Positions 1 to 25,245 of a stretch of 64,000 nucleotides of DNA are shown here, piece after piece. The translations under genes were made by a program, and so were the position numbers. The notes under the pieces were generated by a model. That model did no database searches. It was not told the origin of the DNA and saw nothing but the letters and a program-made list of their open reading frames with translations. Location of the stretch: assembly GCA_963803915.1 (NCBI GenBank), contig CAWDOL010000015.1:140013-204012 (forward strand), read 5' to 3'. Position 1 is the first letter of the stretch; every line of letters begins with the position of its first letter. The stretch comes from Candidatus Aminicenantes bacterium. GTDB lineage: Bacteria; Acidobacteriota; Aminicenantia; Aminicenantales; UBA4085.

Positions 1-474
1 GGCATCTGGCCGACCCAGGGCGGCGTCTGGGTGAAGTACGCCAAGGATAACGGTTGGGGGCTTCTTTCTTCGTCGGCGGATTGGATCGCCACGGGGAAAA
101 TGCGAACCGCAGCCGGGAATACATGGCCGGCCGGACTCCACGAATCGTCCCATCCATTGGGGCGGCCGGCGGCTTGGTTCAATAATCTTTCCCAACCTTT
201 CGGAAAGGCTCCGGCTGTGGCGCCGGAACGGCCCCAGCCGTTCGGTCCCCTTTCCAACGGTCCTCCGAACAAATCAACGGCTGCCGGCCCCGCTCCCATC
301 GGATCTTCAAAGGGCCCCGGCTCGACCGGATTCGTCTTCGATAGACAACCGAATCTCGATCCGAATCACGGAGATTCATTCCTCGCGCCGCGGAATCGTC
401 TTCCCTCTCCGGGCGAACCCGGATTCCGGTGTCCGGCGGAGAAAAACCTGATTCCTCGAATGGAAAAAAAATAA
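1..474 (+). CDS. FG-GAP/VCBS-like repeat protein, C-terminal fragment (5' end outside window)
   Basis: Frame 1 is open from nt 1 (GIWPTQGGVWVKYAKDNGWG..SADWIATGKMR). The repeat unit matches the adjacent 840-aa protein. Stop TAA 472-474. Shares that protein's bipartite C-terminal tail. Confidence 0.55.
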   Translation, partial: GIWPTQGGVWVKYAKDNGWGLLSSSADWIATGKMRTAAGNTWPAGLHESSHPLGRPAAWFNNLSQPFGKAPAVAPERPQPFGPLSNGPPNKSTAAGPAPIGSSKGPGSTGFVFDRQPNLDPNHGDSFLAPRNRLPSPGEPGFRCPAEKNLIPRMEKK

Positions 475-522
475 AAGAGCAAGCCCGGTTTCCGGAGCAT
501 CCTATAGGGAAAATATTTCCCG

Positions 523-556
523 TTCGGCCGGGGGACCGGGAATATGCCCGGCCGGA
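523..556. terminator. GC-rich hairpin between convergent genes (candidate bidirectional terminator)
   Basis: CGGCCGGG (525-532) pairs perfectly with CCCGGCCG (547-554) around a 14-nt loop. It lies between the stops at 474 (+) and 612 (-). No clean U-tract. Confidence 0.25.
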
Positions 557-611
557 ATCGGGCCAACATCATAAAAAGCACCGCTGGGGGGCAGGGGTGA
601 TCGCCGGAATC

Positions 612-3134
612 CTAATTGATGCGTTCAGGGGATAAATTTTTCTGCGACTTGAACATGAAGCCCGATTCTCCAGGCCCCGGAAGGCGTCGAACCCGAGAGC
701 GAGGCTCGCCGGCGACCAGGTTTCCTTCCGTTTGGAAGCGGAATCCGCTCCCTCCGGGTCCTTCAGACGAGAGATCCATGTAGACCCCGCCTATGCCGGC
801 CGGGGGGATGGTTCCGCCTAAAGGAGCATCGAGTATCCGAGCATTCCAAAACCCTTGGCTCCAAGCGCCGCCCGCCATTCTGCCGACGGCGATGTCCCTT
901 GCCGTCGAGCCGATGTAAGCCCACGTCTGGCTGCGCGAGTATTTCACCCAAATGCCCGCCTGCCCCGGCCAGAGGCCGATCAGGTCGTCGAAGCCGTCAT
1001 TGTCCAGATCCCCGGCCGTGATCCGGCCGGCCGGAGAGGCCATTTTCACCCACTCGCCGGAAATCGAGTCGTTATAGAAAACCCCTTGGCCGGCCCACGT
1101 TCCCAGAAAATCGACGCGGCCGTCGCCGTTCATGTCGCCGGCGGCGATGTCCGAGGCCGCGGAACCGAGATAGCTCCAAGTCCCGGCTTTGGAAAGCTTC
1201 GTCCAGACGCCCGCCTGACTCGGCCAAACACCGACGAGGTCGTCCTTCCCGTCGCCGTCCAGGTCTCCGGCCGCGAGCAGATCGGCCGGCGTAGCCATAA
1301 GAACCCAGCTTCCGCTTACCGAGTCTTTGTAATAGACCCCCTGCCCGTCCCAGGTGCCGAGAAAATCGACGCGGCGGTCGCCGTTCATGTCTCCGGCCGC
1401 GACCCGGCGGGCCGCGTTCGATAGAAAAGCCCAAGCACCGTCGGCCGAGTTTCTGACCCAGACTCCGTTCTGTCCTCCCCAAATTCCGATGAGATCATCC
1501 TGGCCGTCCCCACCGAGGTCGCCGCAGACGATGAGATCGGCGGGGGAGGCCAGGGCGGTCCAGGCGCCGGTTTCGGAGCTCCGGGCATAGACTCCCTGCC
1601 CGTCCCAGGTGCCGACGAGATCCTTTTTCCCGGAGGAAAGTATCTTCTCGACCGCCGATGGGGCATGGATCCGACCCCAGCCGTAGACATTATTGGGGAC
1701 GGCGGAAGCTTCATCGCCGCCGCAGCCTTGGCTTGTTGTTTTCGGGACGGCCGTCCGGGTCATGGCGTATTCCAGGCCGGCGACGTTACCCGCCATGGCG
1801 GGATGGGCGGACAACATCAGCGCGGCCAACCCGGCCGCGTGAGGCCCGGCCATGCTCGTCCCGCTCATGGATTGATATCCGCCGTCGGGGATGGAGGACC
1901 GGATGGCCACTCCCGGCGCCGAGACGTCGGGCTTCATCCGGCCGCTGCCGTCAAGGGTCACCGGACCGCGGCTGCTGAAACCGGCGACGGAATCGGACGA
2001 ATCCGTGGCAGCGACCGTGAAGGACTCCTCGTAAATCCCCGCGGGCGCGTTGATCGTGCCGCAGGCAGGGCCGCTGTTTCCGGCCGAGTGGACGGTCAGG
2101 ATCCCGGCGGCGCGAACGTTTGCGACGACTGTCAGCAAAATGTCGGGGTCCGTGCAGCCCTCGCTCGGCGGGCAGCTCCAGGAATTGTTGATGATGTCGG
2201 GGGCCAGGGCGGGATCCGGGTTTTGGCCGTCGAGGTTGGTGGGCGCGATGAACCACTGGTAGCACTCGCTGTACGTGGCCGGCGTGCCCAGGCCGGATTT
2301 CATGTTGCGGCAGCCGATCCATTTCGATCCGGGCGCCACACCGACCGCGTTGGCCGCTCCCGCCGGCCAGCTCGGCTGGCTCGGCGCCAGGTCGTTGCCG
2401 GCGATGGTGCCCATGGTGTGGGTTCCGTGCCCGTGGTCGTCGTAAGGCTCCTTGAGGTCCCCGCCGGCGCCATGGACGGCGTCGTGCCAGCTGTAATTGT
2501 GGTCGACGGACGCTCCGTTCCAGCCGCGATACTGATTGATCAGTGCGGGATGGTCCCAGTCATAGCCCGTGTCCTGGCCGCCGACAACGACGCCTTGTCC
2601 ACGATATCCGCTCGTCCAGACCTGGGGCGCTCCGATCTTGTTGATGTTCCATTCGATGGCCGAGGGGGCCTGATCCAAAGGCATGTCGGCGGAGGGGGGC
2701 GGCGCGGGGAGGCTGATTCGCGGGTTCGCCGAGACGCGTGCGATATCCATACGCTCGGCCATCTTCTCGATGATGGGAAGATCGCCCCTGACCCAGATCA
2801 TGTTGGCCACCCAGAAGGGCTTGAATTCCGCCCCCAGCGCTTCCAGCTCCGCGATCACCGGAGGCTGAGTGGCGGCCGCGATCGCCGTCAGCTCCTGATA
2901 GACGAACGCGCCCTTGGCCGCTTTGGACGAGAGCCGGCCCGCGGGCTCCAGATCGGCTTGGACGGTAAGGAAGAGCAGAAACTCCGTCTTCGCCCCGCCC
3001 TCGGCAGTGCGGATGACCCAGCGATCGACCTTGGGCGCCCAGTCCGGAGACTGCGTTCGTCCGTCACCATGGCCTCCGACTCCGAATAAAACAACCGGGC
3101 CTAACCACAATGCATGGACGATCTTCAGTTTCAT
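612..3134 (-). CDS. Secreted subtilisin-like serine protease (peptidase S8) with C-terminal FG-GAP/VCBS-like repeats
   Basis: 840-aa ORF with a hydrophobic N-terminus. Catalytic motifs VVVGGQDTGYD (Asp), HGHGTHTMGTIAG (His) and SGTSMAGPHAAG (Ser). The C-terminal half has five GD(L/M)xGDG..D(L/F)(I/L/V)G.W repeats. Confidence 0.9.
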   Translation of the reverse strand: MKLKIVHALWLGPVVLFGVGGHGDGRTQSPDWAPKVDRWVIRTAEGGAKTEFLLFLTVQADLEPAGRLSSKAAKGAFVYQELTAIAAATQPPVIAELEALGAEFKPFWVANMIWVRGDLPIIEKMAERMDIARVSANPRISLPAPPPSADMPLDQAPSAIEWNINKIGAPQVWTSGYRGQGVVVGGQDTGYDWDHPALINQYRGWNGASVDHNYSWHDAVHGAGGDLKEPYDDHGHGTHTMGTIAGNDLAPSQPSWPAGAANAVGVAPGSKWIGCRNMKSGLGTPATYSECYQWFIAPTNLDGQNPDPALAPDIINNSWSCPPSEGCTDPDILLTVVANVRAAGILTVHSAGNSGPACGTINAPAGIYEESFTVAATDSSDSVAGFSSRGPVTLDGSGRMKPDVSAPGVAIRSSIPDGGYQSMSGTSMAGPHAAGLAALMLSAHPAMAGNVAGLEYAMTRTAVPKTTSQGCGGDEASAVPNNVYGWGRIHAPSAVEKILSSGKKDLVGTWDGQGVYARSSETGAWTALASPADLIVCGDLGGDGQDDLIGIWGGQNGVWVRNSADGAWAFLSNAARRVAAGDMNGDRRVDFLGTWDGQGVYYKDSVSGSWVLMATPADLLAAGDLDGDGKDDLVGVWPSQAGVWTKLSKAGTWSYLGSAASDIAAGDMNGDGRVDFLGTWAGQGVFYNDSISGEWVKMASPAGRITAGDLDNDGFDDLIGLWPGQAGIWVKYSRSQTWAYIGSTARDIAVGRMAGGAWSQGFWNARILDAPLGGTIPPAGIGGVYMDLSSEGPGGSGFRFQTEGNLVAGEPRSRVRRLPGPGESGFMFKSQKNLSPERIN

Positions 3135-3246
3135 GGCTTCAAATGCTCCCGCGCGCTTCTACATTTTGGTCGTCGGCCTGCTCGGCATGATCAGCTTCAT
3201 CGCGGTGGTCATGATCCTGATCACCGGCAAGACTTGACCCTCCGGT

Positions 3247-5335
3247 TCATCGCAGAGATACGTCGGCAGTACTCGTCCCGCCCTTCTGGGACGAGACGAC
3301 GATTTTAATGGGCGAGTCGCCTTCGACGACGGCCAGCCAGCGCAGCTCGCGCATCGGGCCGGCCGAGGCCGGCTTGGCTTCGGACCCGGCCGGCTCTTTG
3401 TAACCGGGAATGGGCATCGAACCCTCCAGAACACCCAGCCGGGCCGGAGATCCGCCCGACACGATGCGGAAATTGGCGCCCCCCGCCGTCAGCCAGGCTA
3501 AATCCTCCCGGTTTCCGGGGATCGATACGCCTTGGGCAAGATGCGTGGCCAAGGCGCCGCGGTTCTCGATTCGGGCTCTCACTTCGATAGCCCTGAACCG
3601 CCCCTCCGCCCCGGGCTGCCCGACACCGGCCAAGCTTTCCGCCGTCCATCCGGCAGCCGTTTTGGGATCGTCGGTGGCGCCGATGACGCGGGCCTTGGCT
3701 TCGGCCACGACGACATCGGGCAGCAGCCCGGCCCGGAACAGCTCGAACTTCCCGTGCGTCTCGCAAACGTAAGTCAGTGGCTCGCCCGGCCAGGCATTGT
3801 TCTGGTAGAGCGGGATCCAGCCCCCGATCTCGCCCGGCCCCAGCTCCGGATGGACGAAAGGCCGCCAGGGGATGAATAATTTCCCGCCGTACTTGGCGTC
3901 CTGCCAGGCCAGGAGAGCCCTTTGCTGGGTCAGGCCGGTCGGGTCGGGCGCGAGAGCCGGGAAGCCCGGGATGTCCCGGGCCGGGTTCCAGAGCTCGGTG
4001 GTGATGGAGTAGGAGCCGTGGTGGCGGAATTCCCAGTCCGTGGACAGCCCGTAGCCGTACTGCCGGTCGCTCAGCTCGTCGTAGCTGACCCGCCAGCCCC
4101 GGGGCAGCTCGTAGCCGCGTAGGGCGGCGAGCTTGTTCTTGCCCTGGGCCAGAGCGGCCTTGGCCTGGTCGAGGCCCGATGGGTCCTTCCAGACCGCGGG
4201 GACTTCCTCGCCGATGAGCTCCAGGTACTTGCGGCCCATGATGAAGTCCATCACGGCCACGTCCTTGGGGTGATAGGCGGTATGCGGCGAGGAGCCCATC
4301 GGCCGATAAGTGAATCCGCCCGAGGTATGGTAAGTTCTGGCCCATCAGGATGTTGCGGTGGGCCAGGAAGAAGTCGCAGAAGGCCTTGACCTCCGGTGAG
4401 GAGGCCGGGAAGTCGCCCGTGCCCCCGGCCGTGCCGTCGTCCCGATACCAGCGGATGGGAAAGTTGCGGTTGATGTCGATGCCCGACTCGGGGTCCTCGC
4501 CCCGGCGGCCGTCGCCGTCGTTGTCCAGGTCCTCGCCGACCACGGTATAGGTCGGGCGCGTCGTCGTCTCCTCATTCCGCAGCCTGACCATGAGCCGCGG
4601 GTCCGTCTCATCGGCCACGAGACGACCCTTGGCGTCCTTATAGCGGAACTGGGCGATGACGCCGTCCCCGTCGAGGTCGTCGGGGCCGTCCTCGTTCGTT
4701 CGTCCGTCGCGGTCGTCGTCCCGGAGCATGCTGTTGGCGCGCTGGGAGATGCCGCGCTCCAGGCTGTTCGAGTGGCCGTCGGGGTTGACGATCGGGCAGA
4801 TGTAGAAGACCTTGCGGTCGACCAGGGCGCGGATGGCGGGATCGGATTCGCAGCCGGAGACGAGCTTGTCGATGATATACAGGCAGACCTCCGTGCCGGT
4901 GAACTCGTTGCCGTGGGTCGAGCCGCAGATCCAGTGGCCGGGCTTGGAGAGGTGGGCGGGGACGGCGGGGGAGGCCGTGACGGCCGATCCCGCCGCGGAA
5001 GGCGGGAGCGCGGGGAGAAGCGATTCGAGGCTGACGCCTGTGCCCTTGTTGGTGACGGTCAGGACGAAGATCGGCCGTCCGAAGCTGCTGCGGCCGATCT
5101 CCTCGAGCTCGGTGATCTCGGGATAAGCTGCGGCGACGTCCTGGAGATAGCGCGTCACAGCGGCCGTGGTATGGAAGCCGTCGAAGGCGATCGGGACTCG
5201 GGAAGTCGACGGTGCGGACGCGGGAATCGCAGGCACGGGGATCGCGAAAACCAGGAGAAAGGCAAGAAGGCCGGCTGGAATCAGCCGTTCCAGGCTTGAT
5301 CCCATTGGGTCCGCATGGGGCGAGAGAATCGGCAT
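3247..5335 (-). pseudogene. Zinc carboxypeptidase (peptidase M14), reading frame broken once (or assembly indel)
   Basis: Upstream part is in the 703-aa ORF frame: signal peptide, HWICGSTHGNEFTG (HxxE), NPDGH, GIDINRNFP. Downstream part is in the 350-aa ORF frame: TYHTSGGFTYRPMGSSPHT. The frames join only if one nt is removed near 4332 (coding strand AAC-T-TAC). ATG at 5335 or 5305 is more plausible than 5416. Confidence 0.8.
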
Positions 5336-9031: not shown

Positions 9032-10312
9032 ATGAAGCGTCTCCTTTTGTCTCCGGTTCTTGCAGGGCTCGTTCTTATGTGTGCCCCCGTCGCTTCATCT
9101 CCGCAGCGACGGACTTTGGCTGAAGCGCTCGTTGATCCCATGGTGCAGACCGCCCTCCAGCACATCGATGGCCGCGCGGAAAGGATGGGAGCCGATTTGG
9201 CCAAGATCGGCGCCATTCCTTCCCCATCCGGCGGCGAGCATGCGCGCGCCGCGGCCGTGGCGGCGATGATGCGGGCCATCGGCTTGTCGGCCGTGACTGT
9301 GGATGCCGTGCCGAACGCCGTCGGATATATCCCCGGGCGCTCGGGGCGGGCTCTCGTCTTTGTTTCCACCCTGGACGATCTGGCGACGGTGACCGCGCAT
9401 CAGAGCCGGGCCGCGGGCCCGCCGCGCGTGGACGGCGATCGGGTCCTGGGACCCGGCACCAATACCTCGGCGACCACCATGGCTCTTCTGAGCGCGGCCG
9501 AGGCCTACCTGAAGGCCGGGCTCAAACCGGAGCACGACCTGGTGTTTGCCGCCGTGGCCCAGGAAGAGACGGGCCTGACGGGCATGAAGAAGCTTTACGC
9601 CGATTACCGGGACCGGGCCGTCGGATTCGTCGACATCCTCGGCGACGGCCGCTCGATCTCCTATGGGGCGCTGGGAATCCACTGGTGGAAAGTGATCGCT
9701 TCGGGTCCCGCGGGCCACTCGTTAGGCGGCGGACTGCCCAACGTCAACCAGGGCCTCGGCCGGGCCGTCGACCGCATCCTGGCCTTGCCGCATCCGGCCC
9801 GCGAGACCGCTTTGCGCACGGTCGTCAACGTCGGCATCATCCAGAGCGGCACCGTATTCAATCACAAGCCCGAGAGCGGTTGGTTCTCACTGGATATCCG
9901 CTCCCTGGAGGCGGGATCGATCGACGCCGTTGAAAGCGCCGTGCGGGCCGAGCTGGCGCGCATCACCGAAGAGACGGGCATCGCTTTCAGGATGGAGCCC
10001 TTCCAAATCACTCCCGGCGGCCAGATCCCGGGGGCCGAGAGCTCTCCTCTGGTAAAGACGGCCGCCGCTATCTCCCGCCATCTGGGGTACGAGCCGCGTC
10101 TGGGCAATGCCGGCTCCTCCAACATGAACGTGGCTGTAGGAGGGGGCACGCCGGCCATCGGATTGGGCGGTGATCGGGGAGGCGCGAGGGGGACGCCCGA
10201 GGAGTGGGCCGGCATCCCGGCCATGGTCAGAAGCGCGAAGCACGTCTTTCTTCTGGCCGCGACCCTGGGCGGTGCGGCGTCGCTTGACTCCTCGAGTCTC
10301 GGAGCTTTATAG
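9032..10312 (+). CDS. Peptidase M20 family (secreted)
   Basis: Signal peptide MKRLLLSPVLAGLVLMCAPVASS begins at the ATG at 9032. Metal-site context GPGTNTSATT and AVAQEETGLTGM. M20-like dimerisation and C-terminal region. Confidence 0.8.
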   Translation: MKRLLLSPVLAGLVLMCAPVASSPQRRTLAEALVDPMVQTALQHIDGRAERMGADLAKIGAIPSPSGGEHARAAAVAAMMRAIGLSAVTVDAVPNAVGYIPGRSGRALVFVSTLDDLATVTAHQSRAAGPPRVDGDRVLGPGTNTSATTMALLSAAEAYLKAGLKPEHDLVFAAVAQEETGLTGMKKLYADYRDRAVGFVDILGDGRSISYGALGIHWWKVIASGPAGHSLGGGLPNVNQGLGRAVDRILALPHPARETALRTVVNVGIIQSGTVFNHKPESGWFSLDIRSLEAGSIDAVESAVRAELARITEETGIAFRMEPFQITPGGQIPGAESSPLVKTAAAISRHLGYEPRLGNAGSSNMNVAVGGGTPAIGLGGDRGGARGTPEEWAGIPAMVRSAKHVFLLAATLGGAASLDSSSLGAL

Positions 10313-10358
10313 TCGGCGATGAGAGGTTCAATTCTTTTTTTCACGGGGGGCGCAGCCT

Positions 10359-11279
10359 GTGATTCGAGCGTTTATTGGCGTCACCGACAGGGATTGGTAC
10401 GACCTGCTGTCCATAACTCCCGGTATCGATGAAGTCAACTTCTGGCAACCGGGAGGGCATCGTAAGTTCAGCGCCCTTGTGCCGGGGGAGATGTTCCTCT
10501 TCAAGCTTCACAGTCCGGAGAACTATATCGTCGGTGGAGGATTCTTCTCTTACTCCACCCTTCTGCCGACGAGCCTGGTTTGGGACTCCTTCAGGCAAAA
10601 GAACGGCGCCCGTTCGCTTCCGGAGATGAGAGCGCGGATTCAGCGGCTCCGTCAGAGCCTCGGCTCCAGGCACGAGGACTTCGTCATAGGCAACATACTG
10701 TTGACGCAGCCATTCTTCTTTGTTCGGGAGGAGTGGATTCCCATTCCGTATGATTGGAAGCCAAATATCGTCTCGGGTAAGAGATATGATCTGGAAACCG
10801 AGCCGGGGCTATCTCTATGGCGGGAGATCCAAGTCAGGCTGGCGGATCGTCAACTTCCCAATATGCCGGAGAATCCGATCCGAAGGTACGGTGATCCTAT
10901 TCTGGTTACCCCCAGGCTTGGACAAGGCGCGTTCCGAATCCAAGTTACGGATGCTTACGCTAAGCGTTGCGCCGTAACCGGCGAGAGAACCCTGCCGGTA
11001 CTGGAGGCAGCCCATATCAAGCCCTTTTCGGATGGCGGTGAGCATGCGGTTCCCAATGGTGTTCTTTTCCGTTCCGATATCCATACGCTGTTTGACAGAG
11101 GCTATGTGACGGTCTCGCCGGAATATCGCTTCGAAGTCAGCCAGCGAATCCGAGAGGATTTCGAGAATGGGCGGGATTACTATCGGTTGGCAGGGAGCCG
11201 TCTGATTCTTCCAAATGATATCGCTCAAAGACCGGATCTCGAGATGCTACGCTGGCACAATGAGCGTTTCTTGGGCTGA
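10359..11279 (+). CDS. HNH nuclease (HNH_2/PF13391-like) with N-terminal PUA/EVE/ASCH-like putative reader domain; candidate Type IV restriction enzyme
   Basis: 306 aa, GTG start. N-terminus: NFWQPGG..LVPGEMFLFKLHSPENYIVGGGFF. C-terminus: GQGAFRIQVTDAYAKRCAVTGERTLPVLEAAHIKPFSDGGEHAVPNGVLFRSDIHTLFDRGYVTV. Lower GC than the flanks. Confidence 0.8.
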   Translation: MIRAFIGVTDRDWYDLLSITPGIDEVNFWQPGGHRKFSALVPGEMFLFKLHSPENYIVGGGFFSYSTLLPTSLVWDSFRQKNGARSLPEMRARIQRLRQSLGSRHEDFVIGNILLTQPFFFVREEWIPIPYDWKPNIVSGKRYDLETEPGLSLWREIQVRLADRQLPNMPENPIRRYGDPILVTPRLGQGAFRIQVTDAYAKRCAVTGERTLPVLEAAHIKPFSDGGEHAVPNGVLFRSDIHTLFDRGYVTVSPEYRFEVSQRIREDFENGRDYYRLAGSRLILPNDIAQRPDLEMLRWHNERFLG

Positions 11280-11303
11280 ATACCCTGTGGCCGGAGCTGA
11301 CTG

Positions 11304-12293
11304 ATGGAGATGGAGCAGCGAGCACGGGTCTTCCTCGAGCTTTCCAAGTACACCGGCCGGGATGTCACGGCGGACTTCATCAAGCGCACCTTGGATCATC
11401 TCCCCGCTCTGGGCTTGCCTAGGATCCATTCGCTCTTCGAGGGGATCTACAAGCCTGCTGGGGATAAGTACGCCCTGTGCATTTACAGCCGCTCCGCGGC
11501 AGGAGCGGAGCATGCCGCGTATCCAGATGCGCTGGAGTTCCGGGAGGACGGCAGCTGGATCATGCTCTATTCTCCGAAACGAGGGTCTCTCGACACTTCG
11601 GTCAATCGGGCGCTGATGGCCTGTCAACGAGATCATATTCCGGTGCTTGTCATTGTTAAGATCAAACAAGACAAAAGGCTGCGAGGAGAAAGGTACAGAA
11701 TACTTGGTGCGGCTTTCATCGAGGAATACCGGCCTGATCTGGAGAGCTTTGTTCTTCGCGGCGGAAGAGCGAACATCGTTGATGGGCTCTTTGGCCCTCT
11801 TCAAGAAGAGGAGCGCGACCGATTCCTGATACGGAATCGGGTTTTCTCTCCATTCGCCCTCATTCGCGAGGATCGAACTCTCCATCAATATGACCGGGCC
11901 AGCCGTGAGCGTGCTTTCCGCTCAATTCTTTTAGAGGAGTATGGATGTCTTTGTGCGGTGTGCAAATCCAAGTTCATCCTTCGCGCGGGGCTCCAGAATC
12001 CCATCATCGAGGCAGAAGCCGCTCACATTATCCCGGTTAAAGCAAAAGGGCCAGATGACCCCCGCAACGGATTATCGCTGTGCCGGAGACACCACTGGGC
12101 TTTCGATCTTGGCCTGTTTACGGTCACCGATGCGGCGACGGTGAAGGTCAGCCCAAGAGTGCAGACGGCCATTCGTGAGAAATTCGATCTTGAGGAGTAC
12201 GAGGGCGAAGCTTTGATCCCTCCCGTCAATGATTTGTGCCGGCCGCATGAAACGGTCCTGCATTGGCACCAGAAGGAGAGCTTTCTCCGTTAG
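11304..12293 (+). CDS. HNH nuclease (HNH_2/PF13391-like) with N-terminal SRA/YDG-like putative reader domain; candidate Type IV restriction enzyme
   Basis: 329 aa, starting 24 nt after the previous gene. N-terminus: GIYKPAGDKYALCIYS..AAYPDALEFREDGSWIMLYS..NRALMACQRDHIPVLVIV. C-terminus: CAVCKSKF..EAEAAHIIPVKAKGPDDPRNGLSLCRRHHWAFDLGLFTV. Confidence 0.8.
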   Translation: MEMEQRARVFLELSKYTGRDVTADFIKRTLDHLPALGLPRIHSLFEGIYKPAGDKYALCIYSRSAAGAEHAAYPDALEFREDGSWIMLYSPKRGSLDTSVNRALMACQRDHIPVLVIVKIKQDKRLRGERYRILGAAFIEEYRPDLESFVLRGGRANIVDGLFGPLQEEERDRFLIRNRVFSPFALIREDRTLHQYDRASRERAFRSILLEEYGCLCAVCKSKFILRAGLQNPIIEAEAAHIIPVKAKGPDDPRNGLSLCRRHHWAFDLGLFTVTDAATVKVSPRVQTAIREKFDLEEYEGEALIPPVNDLCRPHETVLHWHQKESFLR

Positions 12294-16915: not shown

Positions 16916-19525
16916 CTACTCGTAGCGCAGGGATTCGGTCGGCTTCTTGCGGGCGACGCGGGCCGTCTGCCATCCCGTCGTCAACAGGGCGACGGCCAGG
17001 GCTCCGGCGAGGACGATTAAATACATCCCCGCCGGAAGCCCGACCTTGTAGACGAAGTTCTTGAGCCAGCGGCCCATCGCGTACTGGGCCAGCGGGAAGG
17101 CGATCGCGGCCGAGGCCAGGACCAGGCCGATGAGTCGGCGGTTGAGAAGAACCATCAATCGGGACCACGACGCGCCCATGACCTTGCGGATGCCGACTTC
17201 CTTCGTCCGCTTTTCCACGGCGTAGGCCGTGAGACCCGCGACGCCGAGGCAGGCGATGAAAATCGTCAGGCCGGCGAAAACCCGGAAGATCCGCTCCATC
17301 CTCGTCTCGCGCCGATAGAGATCGTTGAACGCGTCGTCGAGGAAGAAGTAGTCGAAGGGTTGGCCCTTGGTCCGTCTTTCGAACGCCTCTCTCAGGACGC
17401 TCAGGGTTCGCGGCAGATCCCCCGGTTTGATGCGGACGATGATCTGGCTCCCGGCTTCATAGAGCAAAGCCAGGGGCTGGATGGTCTGATGGAAGGAGAG
17501 GAAATAAAAGTCTTTGACGACCCCCGCGACGCGCAGCTCCCGGCCCCGGCCAAGCAGCCCGTCGATTCGCTTGCCCAGGGGATTCTTCCAGCCGAGGGCC
17601 TTGACCGCCGTCTCGTTCAGCAGGACGCCCTGCTGGTTCTGGCCGACTCCGGGCGAGAAGTTGCGGCCTTGAATTAAGCCGATCCGAAAGAGATCCAGGA
17701 AGCGATCGTCGATCGAATCGAAATAGATGTCCATGGGAGTCGGGCTCCCGGTTTCCGACTCGAATCGGACCGCCGACATGAGGCCGCCGATCTGAAGGGG
17801 TAGGGCGCTCGATCGGGAAACGCCCAAGACCTCCGGACGGCCGAGAAAGTCGTTTTGAATCGCCTCGGCCGCGCCGGCGGTTTCCTTTTCCCGCACCGGG
17901 ATGACGATGACCTGCTCCCTGTCGTAGCCCAGGTTCTGGGACTTGATGTAAGTCATCTGCCGCCAGATGACGGACGTGGCCAGAGCCAGAAAGATGGCCG
18001 CGGAGAACTGGACGATCACCAGGGCGCTGCGGAGCTTCAGGCCCCGCCGTCCCTGGGGACGGAATTGGGACAGAGTCCCCAGCGGCCGCATGGAGGAGAG
18101 GACGGCGGCGGGGTAGAGGCCGGCCAGGATTCCGACGCCCAACGCCCCCAGGACGGCAGCCGACAGGAAGCCGGGATTCAGGATGCTTCCGATTTCGAGC
18201 CCGACGCCGGTCAAGGCTTGGAATTTCGGCCAGAAGACGCGGACAATGGCCAGGGCCAGGATCAGGGCGGCGATCGTCATGAACACCGACTCGGCGATAA
18301 ATTGCCGGAAGAGCGAGCGCCGGCTGGCGCCGGTCACTTGGCGAATGCCGATTTCCTTGGCCCGGGAGGCCGAGCGGGCGGTCGTCAGGTTGATGTAGTT
18401 GACGCAGGCGATCACGAGTAGGGCCAAGGCGATGGATGCGAAGAGAATGACGTAGTGGATCTCGTCGTTGGTTTCCTCCCCGCCATTGATCCGGGATCGC
18501 AAGTGGATATCCGTGAGGGGCTGCAGCGTCATCGCCAATCCCTTCCGGGGGTCGGCTTTGGCGTAGGAGCTGATCAGGGCGGGAAGCTTGGCCTCGACCT
18601 CGGCTCGGGAGCTCCCCTCCGCGAGCTTAACGTAGGTGAAGAAGTTGCGGACACGCCAGGTGTCAAACATATAGGCGTTCCCGGCATCGGCCCGCAGCGT
18701 CTCCAGGGAGACCAGAAAGCGGAACTGGAGGTGCGAAGGGGCCGGAATTCTCTTGAGAACGCCGGTGACCGTGAGGTCGGTCTGTCGGGATCCCCGTTTG
18801 AGCGACACCGGTTGGCCGATCGGGTCCGCGTCGCCGAAGAGCTTCGCGGCGAGGTCCTGCCCGAGGACGACGGACCCCGGCGCGGAGAGGGCCGTTTTCC
18901 GGTCGCCGCGAAGGAGGGGGAACGAAAACAGGTCCAGGAATCCGGCGTCGGCGTAGGTGCCTTCTTCCAGGAAGGACTTTTCCCCGCTGCTTAGGACCGC
19001 CGTTCTCCAGAAACGGTAGACGCGGGCGGTTTCGGCGATTTCGGGGATATTCGAGGCCAAGGCCGGCGCCAGGACCTCGGGTACGCCAGGGTCCAATTGA
19101 TCCGGTTCCAGCGCCGCCCGGCCGAGCACGCGGTAGATCCGTCCGGCGTCTTCGTGGAACCGGTCGAAGCTCAGCTCGAACCGGACGTAGGCGGCGATCA
19201 TGATCACGCCGGCCAGGCCGACGGCCAGCCCGGCCAAGTTGATCAGGGAGAACCATTTGTTCTTGCGGATGTTGCGATAGGAGATGAGGAGATAGTTTCT
19301 GATCATGGCGATGCTCCAGTAGAGTCGGTTGGAGAGGAAGCCGGGCGAGGATTTCAGGACCTGGGCCCAATACCAGGCCCGGGCGGCGGCGCGACCGCGG
19401 GTCCGGCCGATGTCCTCGAAGGCTTCCTGGAAATCCCCGAGGTGCGTGTGGAGGCCCTGGTCCGTGAAGAGAAGCTTCAGCAGCCGGCGGGCCGCGGCGG
19501 GCGGCCGGAGATCGGGCGTCTTCAT
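16916..19525 (-). CDS. ADOP-type duplicated MacB/FtsX-family ABC permease
   Basis: 869 aa. PadR-linked prefix region, then IRNYLLISYRNIRKNKWFSLINLAGLAVGLA, and two FtsX-like 4-TM modules separated by large periplasmic domains. Starts 2 nt after the padR stop. Confidence 0.85.
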   Translation of the reverse strand: MKTPDLRPPAAARRLLKLLFTDQGLHTHLGDFQEAFEDIGRTRGRAAARAWYWAQVLKSSPGFLSNRLYWSIAMIRNYLLISYRNIRKNKWFSLINLAGLAVGLAGVIMIAAYVRFELSFDRFHEDAGRIYRVLGRAALEPDQLDPGVPEVLAPALASNIPEIAETARVYRFWRTAVLSSGEKSFLEEGTYADAGFLDLFSFPLLRGDRKTALSAPGSVVLGQDLAAKLFGDADPIGQPVSLKRGSRQTDLTVTGVLKRIPAPSHLQFRFLVSLETLRADAGNAYMFDTWRVRNFFTYVKLAEGSSRAEVEAKLPALISSYAKADPRKGLAMTLQPLTDIHLRSRINGGEETNDEIHYVILFASIALALLVIACVNYINLTTARSASRAKEIGIRQVTGASRRSLFRQFIAESVFMTIAALILALAIVRVFWPKFQALTGVGLEIGSILNPGFLSAAVLGALGVGILAGLYPAAVLSSMRPLGTLSQFRPQGRRGLKLRSALVIVQFSAAIFLALATSVIWRQMTYIKSQNLGYDREQVIVIPVREKETAGAAEAIQNDFLGRPEVLGVSRSSALPLQIGGLMSAVRFESETGSPTPMDIYFDSIDDRFLDLFRIGLIQGRNFSPGVGQNQQGVLLNETAVKALGWKNPLGKRIDGLLGRGRELRVAGVVKDFYFLSFHQTIQPLALLYEAGSQIIVRIKPGDLPRTLSVLREAFERRTKGQPFDYFFLDDAFNDLYRRETRMERIFRVFAGLTIFIACLGVAGLTAYAVEKRTKEVGIRKVMGASWSRLMVLLNRRLIGLVLASAAIAFPLAQYAMGRWLKNFVYKVGLPAGMYLIVLAGALAVALLTTGWQTARVARKKPTESLRYE

Positions 19526-19527
19526 GC

Positions 19528-19860
19528 TCAGGCCTCGTCCGTCTCGGCGTCAGGGATAGGGGCGTCGGCCCACATGGCGGATTGGATCCTGTACATTTCG
19601 GCCAGCGCCATCTTCCCTTCGCGGGTCACGCGGTAGATCCGCTTGCTGCGGCCACCGCGCGTTTTCAGCGGTTCGCTCAACGTTGACCGCAGGAGCCCCT
19701 TCTTGTCCAAGCGGTCGAGCGGATCGAAAATGGAGCCGAAGGACCAGCGTTTGCCGGTCATGTTGTCCAGAAGCTCCCGGATGGGAACGCAGTAGGCGTT
19801 GTCTTTAAGCTTCCAGACGGCCAGCAGGACGAGCTCCTCGGATCGGGTTATGAGTCTCAT
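19528..19860 (-). CDS. PadR family transcriptional regulator
   Basis: 110 aa. Winged-helix pattern ELVLLAVWKLKDNAYCVPIRELL..GSIFDPLDRLDKKGLLRS..RIYRVTREGKMAL. Confidence 0.9.
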   Translation of the reverse strand: MRLITRSEELVLLAVWKLKDNAYCVPIRELLDNMTGKRWSFGSIFDPLDRLDKKGLLRSTLSEPLKTRGGRSKRIYRVTREGKMALAEMYRIQSAMWADAPIPDAETDEA

Positions 19861-22330: not shown

Positions 22331-22561
22331 TCAGCTCTCGATCCCTTTGTCGTTCACGGCTTTGACGGTCACGACCAGGGATTCGCCCTTCCTGAACTGA
22401 AAGCCCGACAGAGCTGCCAGCGGTTCCTTGACCGTGACCGTCGCGGCGCCGGGAGAGGAACCGGGCCCATAGGTCGCGATATAAGAGACGATTTCCTTCG
22501 CCGGGCTCGGTGACCAGGCTGCTTCGGCCGTCCCCTTTTCGTATATTTCGCAAATTGACAT
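22331..22561 (-). pseudogene. Terminal fibronectin-type-III-like domain, 5'-truncated gene fragment
   Basis: ..AAWSPSPAKEIVSYIATYGPG..VTVKEPLAALSGFQFRKGESLVVTVKAVNDKGIES* fits an Fn3 pattern (W.P....I.SY.I.Y....L.G...G....V.V.AVN..G.S). The frame closes exactly where repeat DR1 and the low-GC island begin. Confidence 0.4.
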
Positions 22562-22599
22562 TGCCGAGCCGCCGGAAGTATATTCCCGGTGTGGTCAAA
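22552..22599 (+). promoter_or_regulatory. Promoter-like direct repeat DR1 (TTGACA-N18-TATATT)
   Basis: AAATTGACA..TATATTCCCGG.GTGG.CAAA matches 25198-25245 at 39 of 48 positions. TTGACA is at 22555-22560 and TATATT at 22579-22584. Weaker similarity continues to about 22625. Confidence 0.35.
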
Positions 22600-22639
22600 C
22601 GGAGGGATTCATCGGTCGGTGCGGGAATTCGCCATGCCG

Positions 22640-22761
22640 TGGAAAAAACAAATTCCTATATTCAATATTCACCCGGCTGGGGTGATGTTTACTGGATTGA
22701 TGCGAAAATAATTGAGGAATTAAGAATTTCCATCGGTTCCGCTCAGGAACCAGGAAGTTAA
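22640..22761 (+). pseudogene. C-terminal fragment of a third PD40-propeller paralog
   Basis: ..QYSPGWGDVYWIDAKIIEELRIS.. compares with ..EPGNGRSDIFWVDAKIIEELKITN* and ..SPGNGNGDIYWIDARVIEELRMKN* of the next two genes. No N-terminal part is present. Confidence 0.5.
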
Positions 22762-22790
22762 GAATTCAGAGTTAAAAGAGGATGTGATAA

Positions 22791-23795
22791 ATGAAGAAAT
22801 TCTTTATCATTTTAACAATATTTGTAAATATAAATTCTTTTGTGTCTGCACAGGATTTGCCCGCACTTAAAGGGCCATATCTTGGTCAGAAACCGGCCGG
22901 ATTAATGCCGGAAATTTTTGCTCCCGGAATATTATCAACTATAGCTCATGAACACAGCAGTCCTGAATTCTCACCCGATGGAAAGGAAGTGTACTATTCC
23001 GTAATATTTCCGGGTGTACAGACTGAAGTAATAATGTTTCGGAAAATAATTGATGGGCAATGGTCAGAACCTGAAGTCGCTCCGTTTTCCGGGCAGCACA
23101 GAGATGGAAGTCCTGTTTACTCTAAGGATGGTTTAAAATTATTTTTCTATTCAATGAGGCCTTATCCGGGGACTTTGGAACCGGAACAAATGGATTTATG
23201 GTTTGTAGAGAAAAAACAAAACAGTTGGGGGAAACCACAACATTTGGGTGATTTGATAAATTCAAACAAAAAAGAGATGATGTTATCGATTGCAAAAAAC
23301 GGGAATCTGTATTTTACCGTGATAGAAAAGGGGAACCACATTTTATATAAATCTGTATATGCAGATGGGAAATATACGGCGGCTCAGAGCCTCGGGAAAT
23401 TTATCGGAGAAAATTTTGCCGAATGGTGTCCATTTATTGCTCCTGATGAAAGTTATCTGATTTTTTCTGCATATGAACTAAAAGGGGATGAGAATAACGA
23501 CCTTTATATTGCTTTTAGGAATCCGGATGGAAGCTGGAAAAAACCGATTAATATGGGACCTTCAATTAATTCTGAATTTCAGGAACAATTCCCTAAGGTC
23601 AGCCCGGATGGGAAATATCTCTTCTTTACAAGCAACAGGTTCAGGGTAGAAAGGAAAATCAATGAGGAATTCTTTTACAAAATGCCTCTTACATATAAGA
23701 AAATACAGGAAATTATGAACGAACCCGGGAACGGCAGAAGCGATATATTTTGGGTAGATGCGAAGATAATAGAGGAATTAAAAATTACGAATTGA
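22791..23795 (+). CDS. PD40/TolB-like beta-propeller repeat protein, secreted
   Basis: 334 aa with a signal peptide. PD40-type motifs SPDGKEVYYS, SKDGLKLFFYS, APDESYLIFSA and SPDGKYLFFTSNR. AT-rich codon usage. Confidence 0.7.
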   Translation: MKKFFIILTIFVNINSFVSAQDLPALKGPYLGQKPAGLMPEIFAPGILSTIAHEHSSPEFSPDGKEVYYSVIFPGVQTEVIMFRKIIDGQWSEPEVAPFSGQHRDGSPVYSKDGLKLFFYSMRPYPGTLEPEQMDLWFVEKKQNSWGKPQHLGDLINSNKKEMMLSIAKNGNLYFTVIEKGNHILYKSVYADGKYTAAQSLGKFIGENFAEWCPFIAPDESYLIFSAYELKGDENNDLYIAFRNPDGSWKKPINMGPSINSEFQEQFPKVSPDGKYLFFTSNRFRVERKINEEFFYKMPLTYKKIQEIMNEPGNGRSDIFWVDAKIIEELKITN

Positions 23796-23919
23796 GAGTC
23801 AGGAGTTAAGAGTAATATTTCAATATATTATTTTTCGGTTTTGCGTGCAGTATTTCTTTTTACCATAAAATCACGGAGAAAGCAAAGATAATTTAGATCA
23901 AGAGTTAGAAGAATAAGGT

Positions 23920-24915
23920 ATGGAAATGAAGAATTTAATAATCTTATTATTCAGTTTTGTTAATATTGGCATTTTTGTTAATGCACAAAATATTCCAATC
24001 CTTAAAGGTCCATATCTTGGTCAGAAACCGCCCGGAATGATACCGGAAATATTTGCTCCGGGTATAATATCGACCGGATATTATGAAAGAAGTATTGTCT
24101 TTTCCCCTACACTTGATGAAATATTTTATCAGTTAAGAGGTTTGAGATTTACGACATTTATTCTTACTTCGAAAATACAGAATGGAATATGGAAGCAGCC
24201 GGAAGTTGCATTATTTTCCGGATATCCTGAATATTGTGATGATTGTCCGTTTTTTAATTATGAAGGGAATACTTTGCTTTTTGTATCAAAGAGACCAATC
24301 CCCGGTACTCAGGTGATTCAAAAAGAATCGGATATTTGGTTTCTCAGGAAAGACAGTAATGGATGGGGACAACCGGAATATTCAGGGAGTATCTTGAATT
24401 CCTCAGGTGATGATGATTATCCGACAGTTTCAAAAATGAACAATATTTATTTTTGTTCAAACAGAGACGGTAATTATGACATTTATGTATCTGAATATTC
24501 AGAATCTGGATATTCTAAACCCGTTCGAATTAATGCTCCCATAAGCACTGAAAAATTTGAAGGACACCCTTTTATTGCTGCCGATGAAAGCTATCTTATC
24601 TTTTCTTCTGACCGCCCGGGTGAACTTGGACAGGCTGATTTATATATCAGCTTTAGAAAGAAGGATAATTCCTGGTCGGAACCTATAAACATGGGAGATA
24701 AAATTAACACTCCTTTTCACGAGGCAGCCCCTTACGTATCTCCCGATGGGAAATATTTATTCTTTTGCAGTTTCCGCCCAAATTATGGAGAGTATTATAG
24801 TAAGAAGTTGGAATATAATGATATAAAAAAACACTTAAATAGTCCAGGAAATGGAAACGGAGATATTTATTGGATTGATGCAAGAGTAATTGAAGAATTA
24901 AGAATGAAAAATTGA
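23920..24915 (+). CDS. PD40/TolB-like beta-propeller repeat protein, secreted (paralog)
   Basis: 331 aa, collinear with the previous gene (ILKGPYLGQKPPGMIPEIFAPGI.., AADESYLIFSSDR, SPDGKYLFFCS). The start could also be the ATG at 23926. Confidence 0.7.
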   Translation: MEMKNLIILLFSFVNIGIFVNAQNIPILKGPYLGQKPPGMIPEIFAPGIISTGYYERSIVFSPTLDEIFYQLRGLRFTTFILTSKIQNGIWKQPEVALFSGYPEYCDDCPFFNYEGNTLLFVSKRPIPGTQVIQKESDIWFLRKDSNGWGQPEYSGSILNSSGDDDYPTVSKMNNIYFCSNRDGNYDIYVSEYSESGYSKPVRINAPISTEKFEGHPFIAADESYLIFSSDRPGELGQADLYISFRKKDNSWSEPINMGDKINTPFHEAAPYVSPDGKYLFFCSFRPNYGEYYSKKLEYNDIKKHLNSPGNGNGDIYWIDARVIEELRMKN

Positions 24916-24983
24916 GAATAAAAGGTAAAAGAATGAAAATGTATATTCATAACTTTATGATTATTAAGGGAGATAAGGTGTGG

Positions 24984-25077
24984 CGGGAGGATGTAGGAAT
25001 CGAACCTACCCGGCCCCTTCGTCAGAAGCCGTGCCGGATTAAAGAGTCCGGAGGGCCAGCAGGCCCCATGCCCTCCC
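24984..25077 (-). pseudogene. Pseudo-tRNA-Sec (degenerate full-length copy of selC)
   Basis: 94 nt, collinear with selC at 53199-53292. The anticodon loop is 8 nt (CTCTTTAA instead of CTTCAAA, plus-strand 25039-25046). The D-stem 3' strand has lost a base (GGCCC vs GGCCCC). Confidence 0.7.
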
Positions 25078-25197
25078 GTTGAATTGGCAGTCGGCTAAAA
25101 ACCGATCGTATTCTATCCGGCAGGATGCTCCAAGCTAAAAGGGGGAGCGAGGTCATCGGAGAGATGACGGAAAGGGGTGTGAAGAATTAGCTGGCTG

Positions 25198-25245
25198 AAA
25201 TTGACACCGTCGAGCGGCAGGGATTATATTCCCGGCGTGGCCAAA
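25198..25245 (+). promoter_or_regulatory. Promoter-like direct repeat DR2 (TTGACA-N17/18-TATATT)
   Basis: Copy of DR1. TTGACA is at 25201-25206 and TATATT at 25225-25230. Lies upstream of a gene relic and esterase copy 1. Confidence 0.35.

Follow-up and report, generated by a model that had tools for sequence, protein, structure and literature searches.

A recurrent tandem of predicted modification-reading HNH nucleases in a Candidatus Aminicenantes genome

A 64,000-nucleotide stretch from a Candidatus Aminicenantes bacterium (assembly GCA_963803915.1, contig CAWDOL010000015.1, positions 140,013 to 204,012; hereafter the window) carries two adjacent open reading frames (ORFs), ORF1 and ORF2, each of which encodes a predicted N-terminal beta-barrel reader joined to a C-terminal HNH nuclease domain. 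The locus is probably a small, horizontally exchanged operon that encodes two complete and individually competent Type IV (modification-dependent) endonucleases of the PUA-superfamily reader::HNH kind. The evidence comes from the domain architectures of the two proteins, their conserved catalytic residues, the operon-like packing of the genes, their recurrent pairing, the independent loss or exchange of either gene, and an atypical base composition. The reader::HNH kind of enzyme is already known; what is new is that the two genes are found paired in many genomes, and that the second of them may be replaced or missing. No description of the recurrent tandem or of the ORF1-type reader domain was found in the literature searched, which was a limited collection.

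Type IV enzymes of the reader::HNH kind defend bacteria against phages with modified DNA, and they serve as reagents for mapping 5-methylcytosine (5mC) and 5-hydroxymethylcytosine (5hmC). The family to which the ORF1 reader belongs is very large, has no Pfam or PADLOC model, and includes no characterised member, and defining the ligand of this reader could add a new specificity, possibly the long-predicted ASCH-type reader of N6-methyladenine (6mA) or N4-modified cytosine. Furthermore, interchangeable partners, together with swapped, deleted and solo variants at one locus, make a compact natural system in which complementary coverage can be set against joint action of Type IV enzymes. Should the pair prove to be two ordinary neighbours, the finding would be a routine improvement of annotation.

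Domain architecture of ORF1 and ORF2

A preliminary description of this DNA, made from the letters alone, reported two same-strand ORFs of 306 and 329 amino acids separated by a 24-nucleotide gap; this layout was recovered, and the peptide strings quoted there are present. Structural models were built with AlphaFold2 (AF2) on family alignments (predicted local distance difference test, pLDDT, of 87.3 for ORF1 and 87.2 for ORF2) and searched against the PDB with Foldseek, and conservation was read from alignments of 63 ORF1 and 64 ORF2 homologs. The features of the two proteins, in window coordinates, are as follows.

10359-11279, plus strand: ORF1, 306 amino acids, GTG start; predicted PUA-superfamily (ASCH/EVE-like) reader, linker helix and HNH_2 nuclease
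10359-10793, plus strand: predicted N-terminal beta-barrel reader of ORF1, residues 1-145; AF2 pLDDT ~90 over the stretch
10806-10913, plus strand: inter-domain linker of ORF1, with a helix (residues 150-164) and then a low-confidence segment (residues 166-185) in the AF2 model
10914-11276, plus strand: HNH_2 domain and C-terminal helices of ORF1, with H219, N233, H242 and D246; a single Cys204 and no CxxC zinc site
11304-12293, plus strand: ORF2, 329 amino acids, ATG start; predicted divergent SRA-like reader, helical linker and HNH_2 domain with a Cys/His zinc site
11304-11783, plus strand: predicted N-terminal SRA-like domain of ORF2, residues 1-160, from the AF2 model, Foldseek and invariant columns
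11895-12290, plus strand: HNH_2 domain of ORF2, with catalytic H241, N255, H264 and D268 and a putative zinc site (C217-x-x-C220 plus C260/H263)

The proposal that both proteins end in an HNH_2 module (PF13391) was borne out by Pfam scores of 42.6 bits for ORF1 and 47.1 bits for ORF2 against a gathering cutoff of 21. By hhalign the two C-terminal domains are homologous (probability 98.7%, E-value 4e-16) and the N-termini show no relationship (probability 0.2%), as the preliminary description had also held. Conservation of the catalytic set, which it had named as a point to be checked, is clear: H219, N233, H242 and D246 of ORF1 and H241, N255, H264 and D268 of ORF2 are invariant or nearly so across the homologs, and the ORF2 residues align to H229, N245, H254 and D258 of the SRA-HNH enzyme TagI, which are essential by mutagenesis. 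The two HNH domains are ~31% identical, and the zinc site occurs in ORF2 only. Membership of the phosphorothioate-dependent SBD-HNH family was considered and rejected, as the NCBIfam model NF045808, which has a cutoff of 180 bits, reached scores of 58.8 and 84.9 and aligned to the C-terminal HNH region alone.

In the ORF1 model a barrel (residues 1-145) is followed by a helix, a flexible segment, and an HNH domain that begins at about residue 189. The barrel carries invariant, aromatic-rich motifs, namely NFWQP (residues 27-31), W13, W75, F119, F120 and W126. The top PDB match of the model is the EVE-HNH enzyme VcaM4I (E-value 5.8e-8), with TagI second, and the best matches among isolated domains are ZmASCH (E-value 3.9e-4, TM-score normalised to the target 0.60), af2351 (TM-score 0.63) and the ASCH domain of TRIP4. 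Further matches include McrB N-domains, EVE proteins and YTH domains; the EVE structure 1zce is matched at an E-value of 0.064, weaker than the ASCH structures at ~4e-4. No Pfam EVE (PF01878) or ASCH (PF04266) match was found in the N-domain of ORF1 or of the 63 family members, and sequence and profile matches to VcaM4I in the PDB are limited to the HNH part (residues 169-267). The predicted structure thus supports a PUA-superfamily barrel, nearest to ASCH and then to EVE and YTH, followed by a linker helix and an HNH domain, in keeping with the PUA/EVE/ASCH-like pattern first suggested.

The ORF2 model has TagI as its top PDB match (E-value 8e-10 over 335 columns), with a TM-score of 0.27-0.31 that is low because the domain orientations differ. 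Among the other Foldseek matches are SUVH6, KRYPTONITE and SUVH9, by their SRA domains, and AbaSI and PvuRts1I, by their SRA-like domains. Motifs of SRA type are found at GIYKP (residues 47-51), Y73-P-D75, DGSW (82-85), N101..L104, IPVLVI (112-117) and RYRILG (130-135), and Y56, Y73 and D75, which are candidate pocket residues, are conserved. The family profile matches TagI marginally (E-value 1.2e-3, residues 95-279, covering part of the SRA domain and the HNH domain), and Pfam SAD_SRA (PF02182) gave no match at an E-value of 1 or below in ORF2 or in any of the 64 family members. An SRA-like reader had been suggested from sequence patterns, and the model supports a divergent SRA domain joined to an HNH domain with a zinc site. 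Both fold assignments are thus supported by predicted structures and, for ORF2, by the one marginal TagI profile match. A scan with the whole of Pfam yielded no model for either N-domain, whether in the two window proteins or in the 63 and 64 family members.

The two families differ in size. At least 8000 database clusters were scored for ORF1; the best 120 of these are full-length and 56-76% identical, and come from Acidobacteriota, Myxococcota, Desulfobacterota, Gemmatimonadota and other phyla. The ORF2 family is small (~260 clusters) and is found mostly in metagenome-assembled genomes of Acidobacteriota and Aminicenantes. When the N-domain of ORF1 was searched alone, with window positions 10359-10853 as the query, 2439 representative clusters at 50% identity were recovered, among them N-domains (42-48% identity) joined to a Mrr_cat PD-(D/E)XK nuclease in two proteins of 335 and 341 amino acids (P0329 and P0362) and to a KAP-family P-loop nucleoside triphosphatase (NTPase) in one of 934 amino acids (P0354). 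The ORF1 N-domain is therefore a large family without annotation that is attached to three types of effector, which is a new point, and its presence on interchangeable nuclease and NTPase effectors is a signature of sensor modules in conflict systems. The ORF2 N-domain, searched in the same manner, turned up solely fused to HNH_2. A phage genome collection yielded matches to the HNH parts only, HHPV4I among them, and the IMG/VR viral contigs contain relatives of ORF1 and none of ORF2.

Pairing, loss and exchange across genomes

The association of the two genes was followed from both sides. The ORF2-side sample comprised 122 loci from scans of genomes and metagenomes; there, ORF2-family genes have a single strongly recurrent neighbour, an ORF1-family gene. 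This lies directly upstream in loci L001, L006, L007, L008, L045, L047, L049 and L053, and downstream, in reversed order, in L043, L050 and L044, where the gaps are 166 nucleotides, 265 nucleotides and ~1 kb and some loci have intervening genes. Of 26 non-redundant loci whose flanks are long enough, about 15 have the ORF2-type gene alone, and no distant relative of ORF2 (below 40% identity) was found paired. The ORF1-side sample comprised 17 loci picked without regard to ORF2; a second HNH_2 gene of ~304-313 amino acids directly follows the ORF1 homolog in six of them (L128/129, L133, L135, L138 and two contigs), while ten hold a solo gene and one carries a deletion remnant of the partner.

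In the pairs for which DNA could be read (L128/129, L133, L135 and L138) the partner belongs to another SRA-like::HNH_2 family, 26% identical to ORF2, whose members are 304-311 amino acids long, bear the motifs PYDD...G..YRY...N..L...PLIYFYG, and have no Pfam SAD_SRA match. An SRA-like::HNH gene follows the ORF1-type gene at about 40% of the loci sampled, with partners drawn from at least two divergent families, and this too is new. Members of the second family that lie directly 3' of ORF1 homologs are found at these positions.

L128, 5921-6850: SRA-like::HNH_2 gene
L133, 1885-2805: SRA-like::HNH_2 gene
L135, 5923-6855: SRA-like::HNH_2 gene
L138, 5919-6854: SRA-like::HNH_2 gene

The genes of homologous pairs either overlap by 4 nucleotides or stand 5-28 nucleotides apart; the overlap, in which the last 4 nucleotides of the first ORF also begin the second, is found in L001, L128 and two metagenome contigs. 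Furthermore, across 10 paired loci the identities between ORF1 homologs co-vary with those between ORF2 homologs (r = 0.81, Mantel p = 2e-4), as would be expected of a cassette passed on as a unit, although common descent of the hosts would produce the same pattern.

At this locus, close relatives of the window genome have the partner swapped or deleted or carry one gene alone, a third new point. L128/L129 (GCA_002383325.1) comes from one such close relative, with an adjacent ornithine cyclodeaminase that is 90% identical, yet its ORF1 is just 72% identical to that of the window and its second slot holds the other SRA-like family. L126 and L127 share this context and have an intact ORF1 followed by a 49-amino-acid, in-frame deletion remnant of the SRA-like::HNH partner, whereas L002-L005 share it and hold an ORF2-type gene alone. 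Toxin-antitoxin genes (MazE/PIN, HicA/HTH) adjoin the polymorphic slot. In the remnant, the first 11 and last 38 residues are joined, and it shares 92% identity with the C-terminal end of the L128 partner protein.

L126, 5921-6070: 49-amino-acid partner remnant
L127, 1937-2086: 49-amino-acid partner remnant

The preliminary description had left open whether the two proteins form one system; the pairing is recurrent and co-inherited, yet facultative. Two autonomous enzymes are favoured because each protein is complete, with its own reader, linker and catalytic residues, each gene is solo in many genomes, and either can be lost while the other persists. Alternatively, the pair could be one cooperative enzyme, either a hetero-oligomer in which the two related HNH domains meet or a sensor and an effector of which neither works alone. 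The co-orientation of the genes, their close spacing and 4-nucleotide overlaps, the standing of the ORF1-type gene as the sole strongly recurrent neighbour, the co-varying identities, and the repeated recruitment of SRA-like::HNH partners from at least two divergent families would all suit such an enzyme, as would the homology of the HNH domains, which form the dimer interface in VcaM4I and TagI, and the observation that ScoA3V, a distant PUA-HNH enzyme, merely nicks DNA in vitro. However, both genes are solo in the majority of sampled loci, one partner is deleted beside an intact other in near-isogenic contexts, and three loci have the reversed order with 166-265-nucleotide gaps or intervening genes; furthermore, the HNH domains share only ~31% identity and differ in that ORF2 alone has the zinc site, each protein is complete in itself, and the co-variation may reflect mere shared descent of the cassette. 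A cooperative enzyme is therefore judged unlikely. The same low likelihood attaches to its most developed form, a genuine two-component system in which a hetero-oligomer would carry two base readers, cleavage would need or be strongly enhanced by two marks or reading modes on the same DNA, and arms races with phages would drive exchange of the SRA-like subunit, which would act as a specificity cassette.

A further HNH_2 fusion was seen in an Acidobacteriota metagenome-assembled genome (L012, 7535-8512, minus strand). This 325-amino-acid protein has an unrelated N-terminal domain without annotation, and its gene is convergent with, and two genes downstream of, a solo ORF2 homolog.

The settings of the homologs bear on whether the pair serves in defence, and here the expectation of defence neighbourhoods held in part: some homologs lie near restriction-modification (R-M), toxin-antitoxin or mobile genes, but others, like the pair in the window and the homologs in L124 and L125, stand alone amid housekeeping genes. 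On a Mesorhizobium plasmid an ORF1 homolog has a type ISP R-M enzyme as its neighbour, and a homolog on a Deinococcus plasmid is flanked by integrases and an insertion sequence (IS) element. In L134 (318-2258) an ORF1 homolog of 60% identity adjoins an AHH nuclease toxin and an Imm11 immunity gene, a polymorphic-toxin cassette. In L135, an IMG/VR contig, the region upstream of the ORF1-like and SRA-like::HNH pair (99-4908) encodes a large serine recombinase, a 132-amino-acid ORF, an AAA ATPase (332 amino acids) and a Peptidase_S8 subtilase (788 amino acids), and looks like an integrative element with a possible ATPase-protease defence pair.

In each of the five loci examined for base composition, the GC content of the nuclease genes is 5-14 points lower than that of the surrounding sequence, and in the window ORF1 and ORF2 have a GC content of 0.547 and 0.556 against 0.634 +/- 0.034 for the 33 other genes (sliding values of 0.55-0.56 over the pair and 0.64-0.68 in the flanks). 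The GC content at third codon positions is 0.62 against 0.76 +/- 0.10, the third lowest of 33. The dip noted in the preliminary description is thus real, but it is moderate, at ~0.55. Only short, chance-level matches were found among direct and inverted repeats that could mark mobile-element ends around the pair.

It could be argued that the proteins have no part in defence, and are instead selfish or housekeeping HNH nucleases, for example of homing type, or else enzymes of repair or RNA processing that use a PUA-like domain to bind damaged bases or modified RNA. Such a role would agree with the size and strong cross-phylum conservation of the ORF1 family, with the activity of ZmASCH and YqfB on RNA or nucleosides, and with the ordinary metabolic surroundings of the genes here and in L124 and L125. 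It is nonetheless improbable, and more so than a cooperative enzyme, since there is no intron, intein or homing context, the distribution is patchy with presence/absence polymorphism between close relatives, the GC content is below that of the host, ORF1 homologs occur on plasmids, between integrases and beside genes for type ISP R-M, toxin-antitoxin and toxin-immunity systems, Mrr_cat, to which the ORF1 N-domain is joined in other proteins, is a nuclease domain of Type IV restriction, and the closest full-length structures are those of characterised restriction enzymes.

Relation to known Type IV enzymes and a possible mode of action

Fusions of PUA-superfamily domains to HNH nucleases have been screened systematically (Lutz et al. 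2019), and on the predicted structures ORF1 and ORF2 are divergent members of this known Type IV class rather than of the TagI or VcaM4I families; they are filed as divergent because by sequence neither matches SRA, EVE or ASCH. The closest counterpart of ORF1 is the EVE-HNH group of VcaM4I, TspA15I and CmeDI (PDB 6yex), with which it shares a three-part layout (PUA-superfamily barrel, linker helix, and HNH_2 domain plus C-terminal helices) and a length of ~305 amino acids. VcaM4I, which is the best PDB profile match of ORF1 (E-value 4.4e-10, HNH part only), likewise has a single Cys in place of the CxxC zinc site and the H/N/H/D catalytic pattern. Its residues 1-147 form a PUA domain, 148-178 a linker helix that is autoinhibitory, and 179-309 the HNH domain through which it dimerises (PMC7897488), and in the ORF1 model the linker helix would correspond in position to the autoinhibitory one. 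The difference lies in the reader, as VcaM4I has an EVE domain to which the ORF1 N-domain has no sequence similarity. ORF2 resembles the SRA-HNH group of TagI, ScoA3IV (Sco5333) and TbiR51I (PDB 6ghs) in its SRA-like barrel and its HNH domain with a Cys/His zinc site, but it is very divergent and has an additional N-terminal helical segment (residues 1-45).

Two further systems combine different readers. In Streptomyces coelicolor a divergent PUA-like::HNH enzyme and an SRA::HNH enzyme are encoded in one small chromosomal cluster, as in the pair described here: Sco5330 (ScoA3V), a distant-PUA::HNH protein with 6mA-stimulated nicking, lies three genes from Sco5333 (ScoA3IV), an SRA::HNH protein directed at 5mC, and their modification preferences are different and complementary. 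Unlike the window pair, which is tight, operon-like and recurs in many genomes, the two S. coelicolor genes are separated by others, and their cluster includes a predicted adenine methyltransferase, Sco5331, next to Sco5330. ScoMcrA (SBD-SRA-HNH; PDB 5zmm) also combines two different modification readers with HNH cleavage, and is among the fold matches of both models; the NCBIfam model PT-DNA_restrict matches both HNH regions, at scores far below its cutoff. However, it carries both readers and one HNH domain on a single polypeptide, whereas the window pair has one HNH protein per reader and no sulfur-binding domain.

From these relatives we infer how two autonomous Type IV enzymes might act. 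VcaM4I and TagI dimerise via their HNH domains, and each window protein would most likely form a homodimer in the same way. The readers of both relatives flip a modified cytosine, as seen in crystal structures of VcaM4I and modelled for TagI, into pockets formed by P24, W82 and Y130 in VcaM4I and by two aromatic walls (Y55 and Y67) and an Asp in TagI; by analogy, the N-terminal barrel of each window protein would flip a modified base of incoming DNA into a pocket, and flipping would release or position the HNH dimer, which would cut the DNA nearby. Reading of 6mA by ASCH-like domains has been predicted but never demonstrated, and N4-acylated cytosine is a substrate of YqfB. ORF2 (SRA-like) would most likely sense 5mC or 5hmC, and ORF1 (ASCH/EVE-like) would sense a different mark, for example another cytosine adduct, N4-modified cytosine or 6mA. 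SRA domains read 5mC and 5hmC, and as ASCH-like domains and YqfB point to other marks, complementary coverage is a natural rationale for the pairing; together the two proteins would act against a wider range of modified phage or plasmid DNA.

Those marks are presumably absent from the host, so that no methyltransferase would be needed. The preliminary description had claimed that the pair has no DNA methyltransferase partner, and this stood: the flanking genes encode, by Pfam, a glyoxalase, an M20 peptidase, an ornithine cyclodeaminase and an aminotransferase, and a crude regular-expression scan of all called genes in the 64-kb window was negative for C5 and N6/N4 methyltransferase motifs. Among called or annotated genes of the homologous loci, no methyltransferase lies beside the pair except the type ISP R-M enzyme (L130) and a small methyltransferase-fold gene (L123). 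Fewer than 6% of PUA::HNH enzymes are near a DNA methyltransferase (PMC6765204), so the absence is typical of the class and counts in favour of two Type IV enzymes. It also bears on a very unlikely alternative, that of conventional, sequence-specific, Type II-like HNH enzymes whose methyltransferases are encoded elsewhere in the genome. Weak PADLOC matches to HNH models that bear the label 'Type II restriction enzyme' (PDLC03546 at E-values of 3.8e-9 and 3.6e-4; PDLC03529) would agree with it, and the visible portion of the genome is 64 kb only; but these matches are confined to the HNH region, the N-domains have predicted folds of modified-base readers and not of sequence recognition, no methyltransferase accompanies the pair beyond the two cases above, and an unlinked methyltransferase is unusual for Type II systems.

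Several points weigh against the preferred reading, that of two individually competent Type IV endonucleases. Tight recurrent pairing, coupling-type overlaps and co-varying partners also fit a cooperative two-protein enzyme, and neither N-domain matches Pfam SRA, EVE or ASCH across the 63 and 64 family members scanned. Strong conservation across phyla, as in the ORF1 family (56-60% identity), is unusual for a defence gene. ASCH, PUA and YTH domains often bind RNA, so the ligand of ORF1 need not be DNA, and the target modifications named above are guesses. A PADLOC search, which had been proposed as a check, returned generic HNH models only (PDLC04132 and PDLC03546, in the C-terminal region) and no named or system-specific defence match, and the window flanks are metabolic, with no defence island around the pair.

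Expression signals and neighbouring sequence

The arrangement of the two genes is operon-like, and the remaining features of the locus are listed here.

10284-10313, plus strand: sigma-70-like promoter candidate TTGACT-18-TATAGT just upstream of ORF1 (consensus scan, 10/12; a pattern match only)
10344-10349, plus strand: GGGGGG, resembling a ribosome-binding site (RBS), read from the sequence 9 nucleotides 5' of the ORF1 GTG
11280-11303, plus strand: 24-nucleotide intergenic spacer containing an RBS-like GGAG at 11293-11296
12290-12293, no strand assigned: overlapping convergent stops TTAG, the TAG of ORF2 and the TAA of the ornithine cyclodeaminase gene

The GTG start of ORF1 is consistent with the N-termini of homologs (MRAFVGVTD). 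A terminator scan gave no terminator-like site in the spacer, the nearest candidate being a weak 5-pair stem within ORF1 (11184-11200), and the convergent stop overlap reported previously was confirmed. Antisense ORFs over the pair, such as one of 213 amino acids at 11247-11888 on the minus strand, were set aside as high-GC artefacts.

Two other regions of the window may be recorded. A block at 22510-25200 has a GC content of 33-44% against ~64%, a compositional anomaly that far exceeds that of the HNH pair, and looks recently acquired from a low-GC donor. It contains tandem paralogous genes at 22791-23795 and 23920-24915, which encode proteins of 334 and 331 amino acids (GC content 38% and 35%; 0.36 and 0.27 at third codon positions), both with signal-peptide-like N-termini and PD40 (TolB-like beta-propeller) repeats, and these are followed at 25424-27253 by a SASA carbohydrate esterase gene of 53% GC. 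Elsewhere, within 16916-19860, the gene of a PadR-family regulator (19528-19860, minus strand) immediately precedes that of an 869-amino-acid MacB/FtsX-type permease (16916-19525, minus strand), which is an ordinary arrangement.

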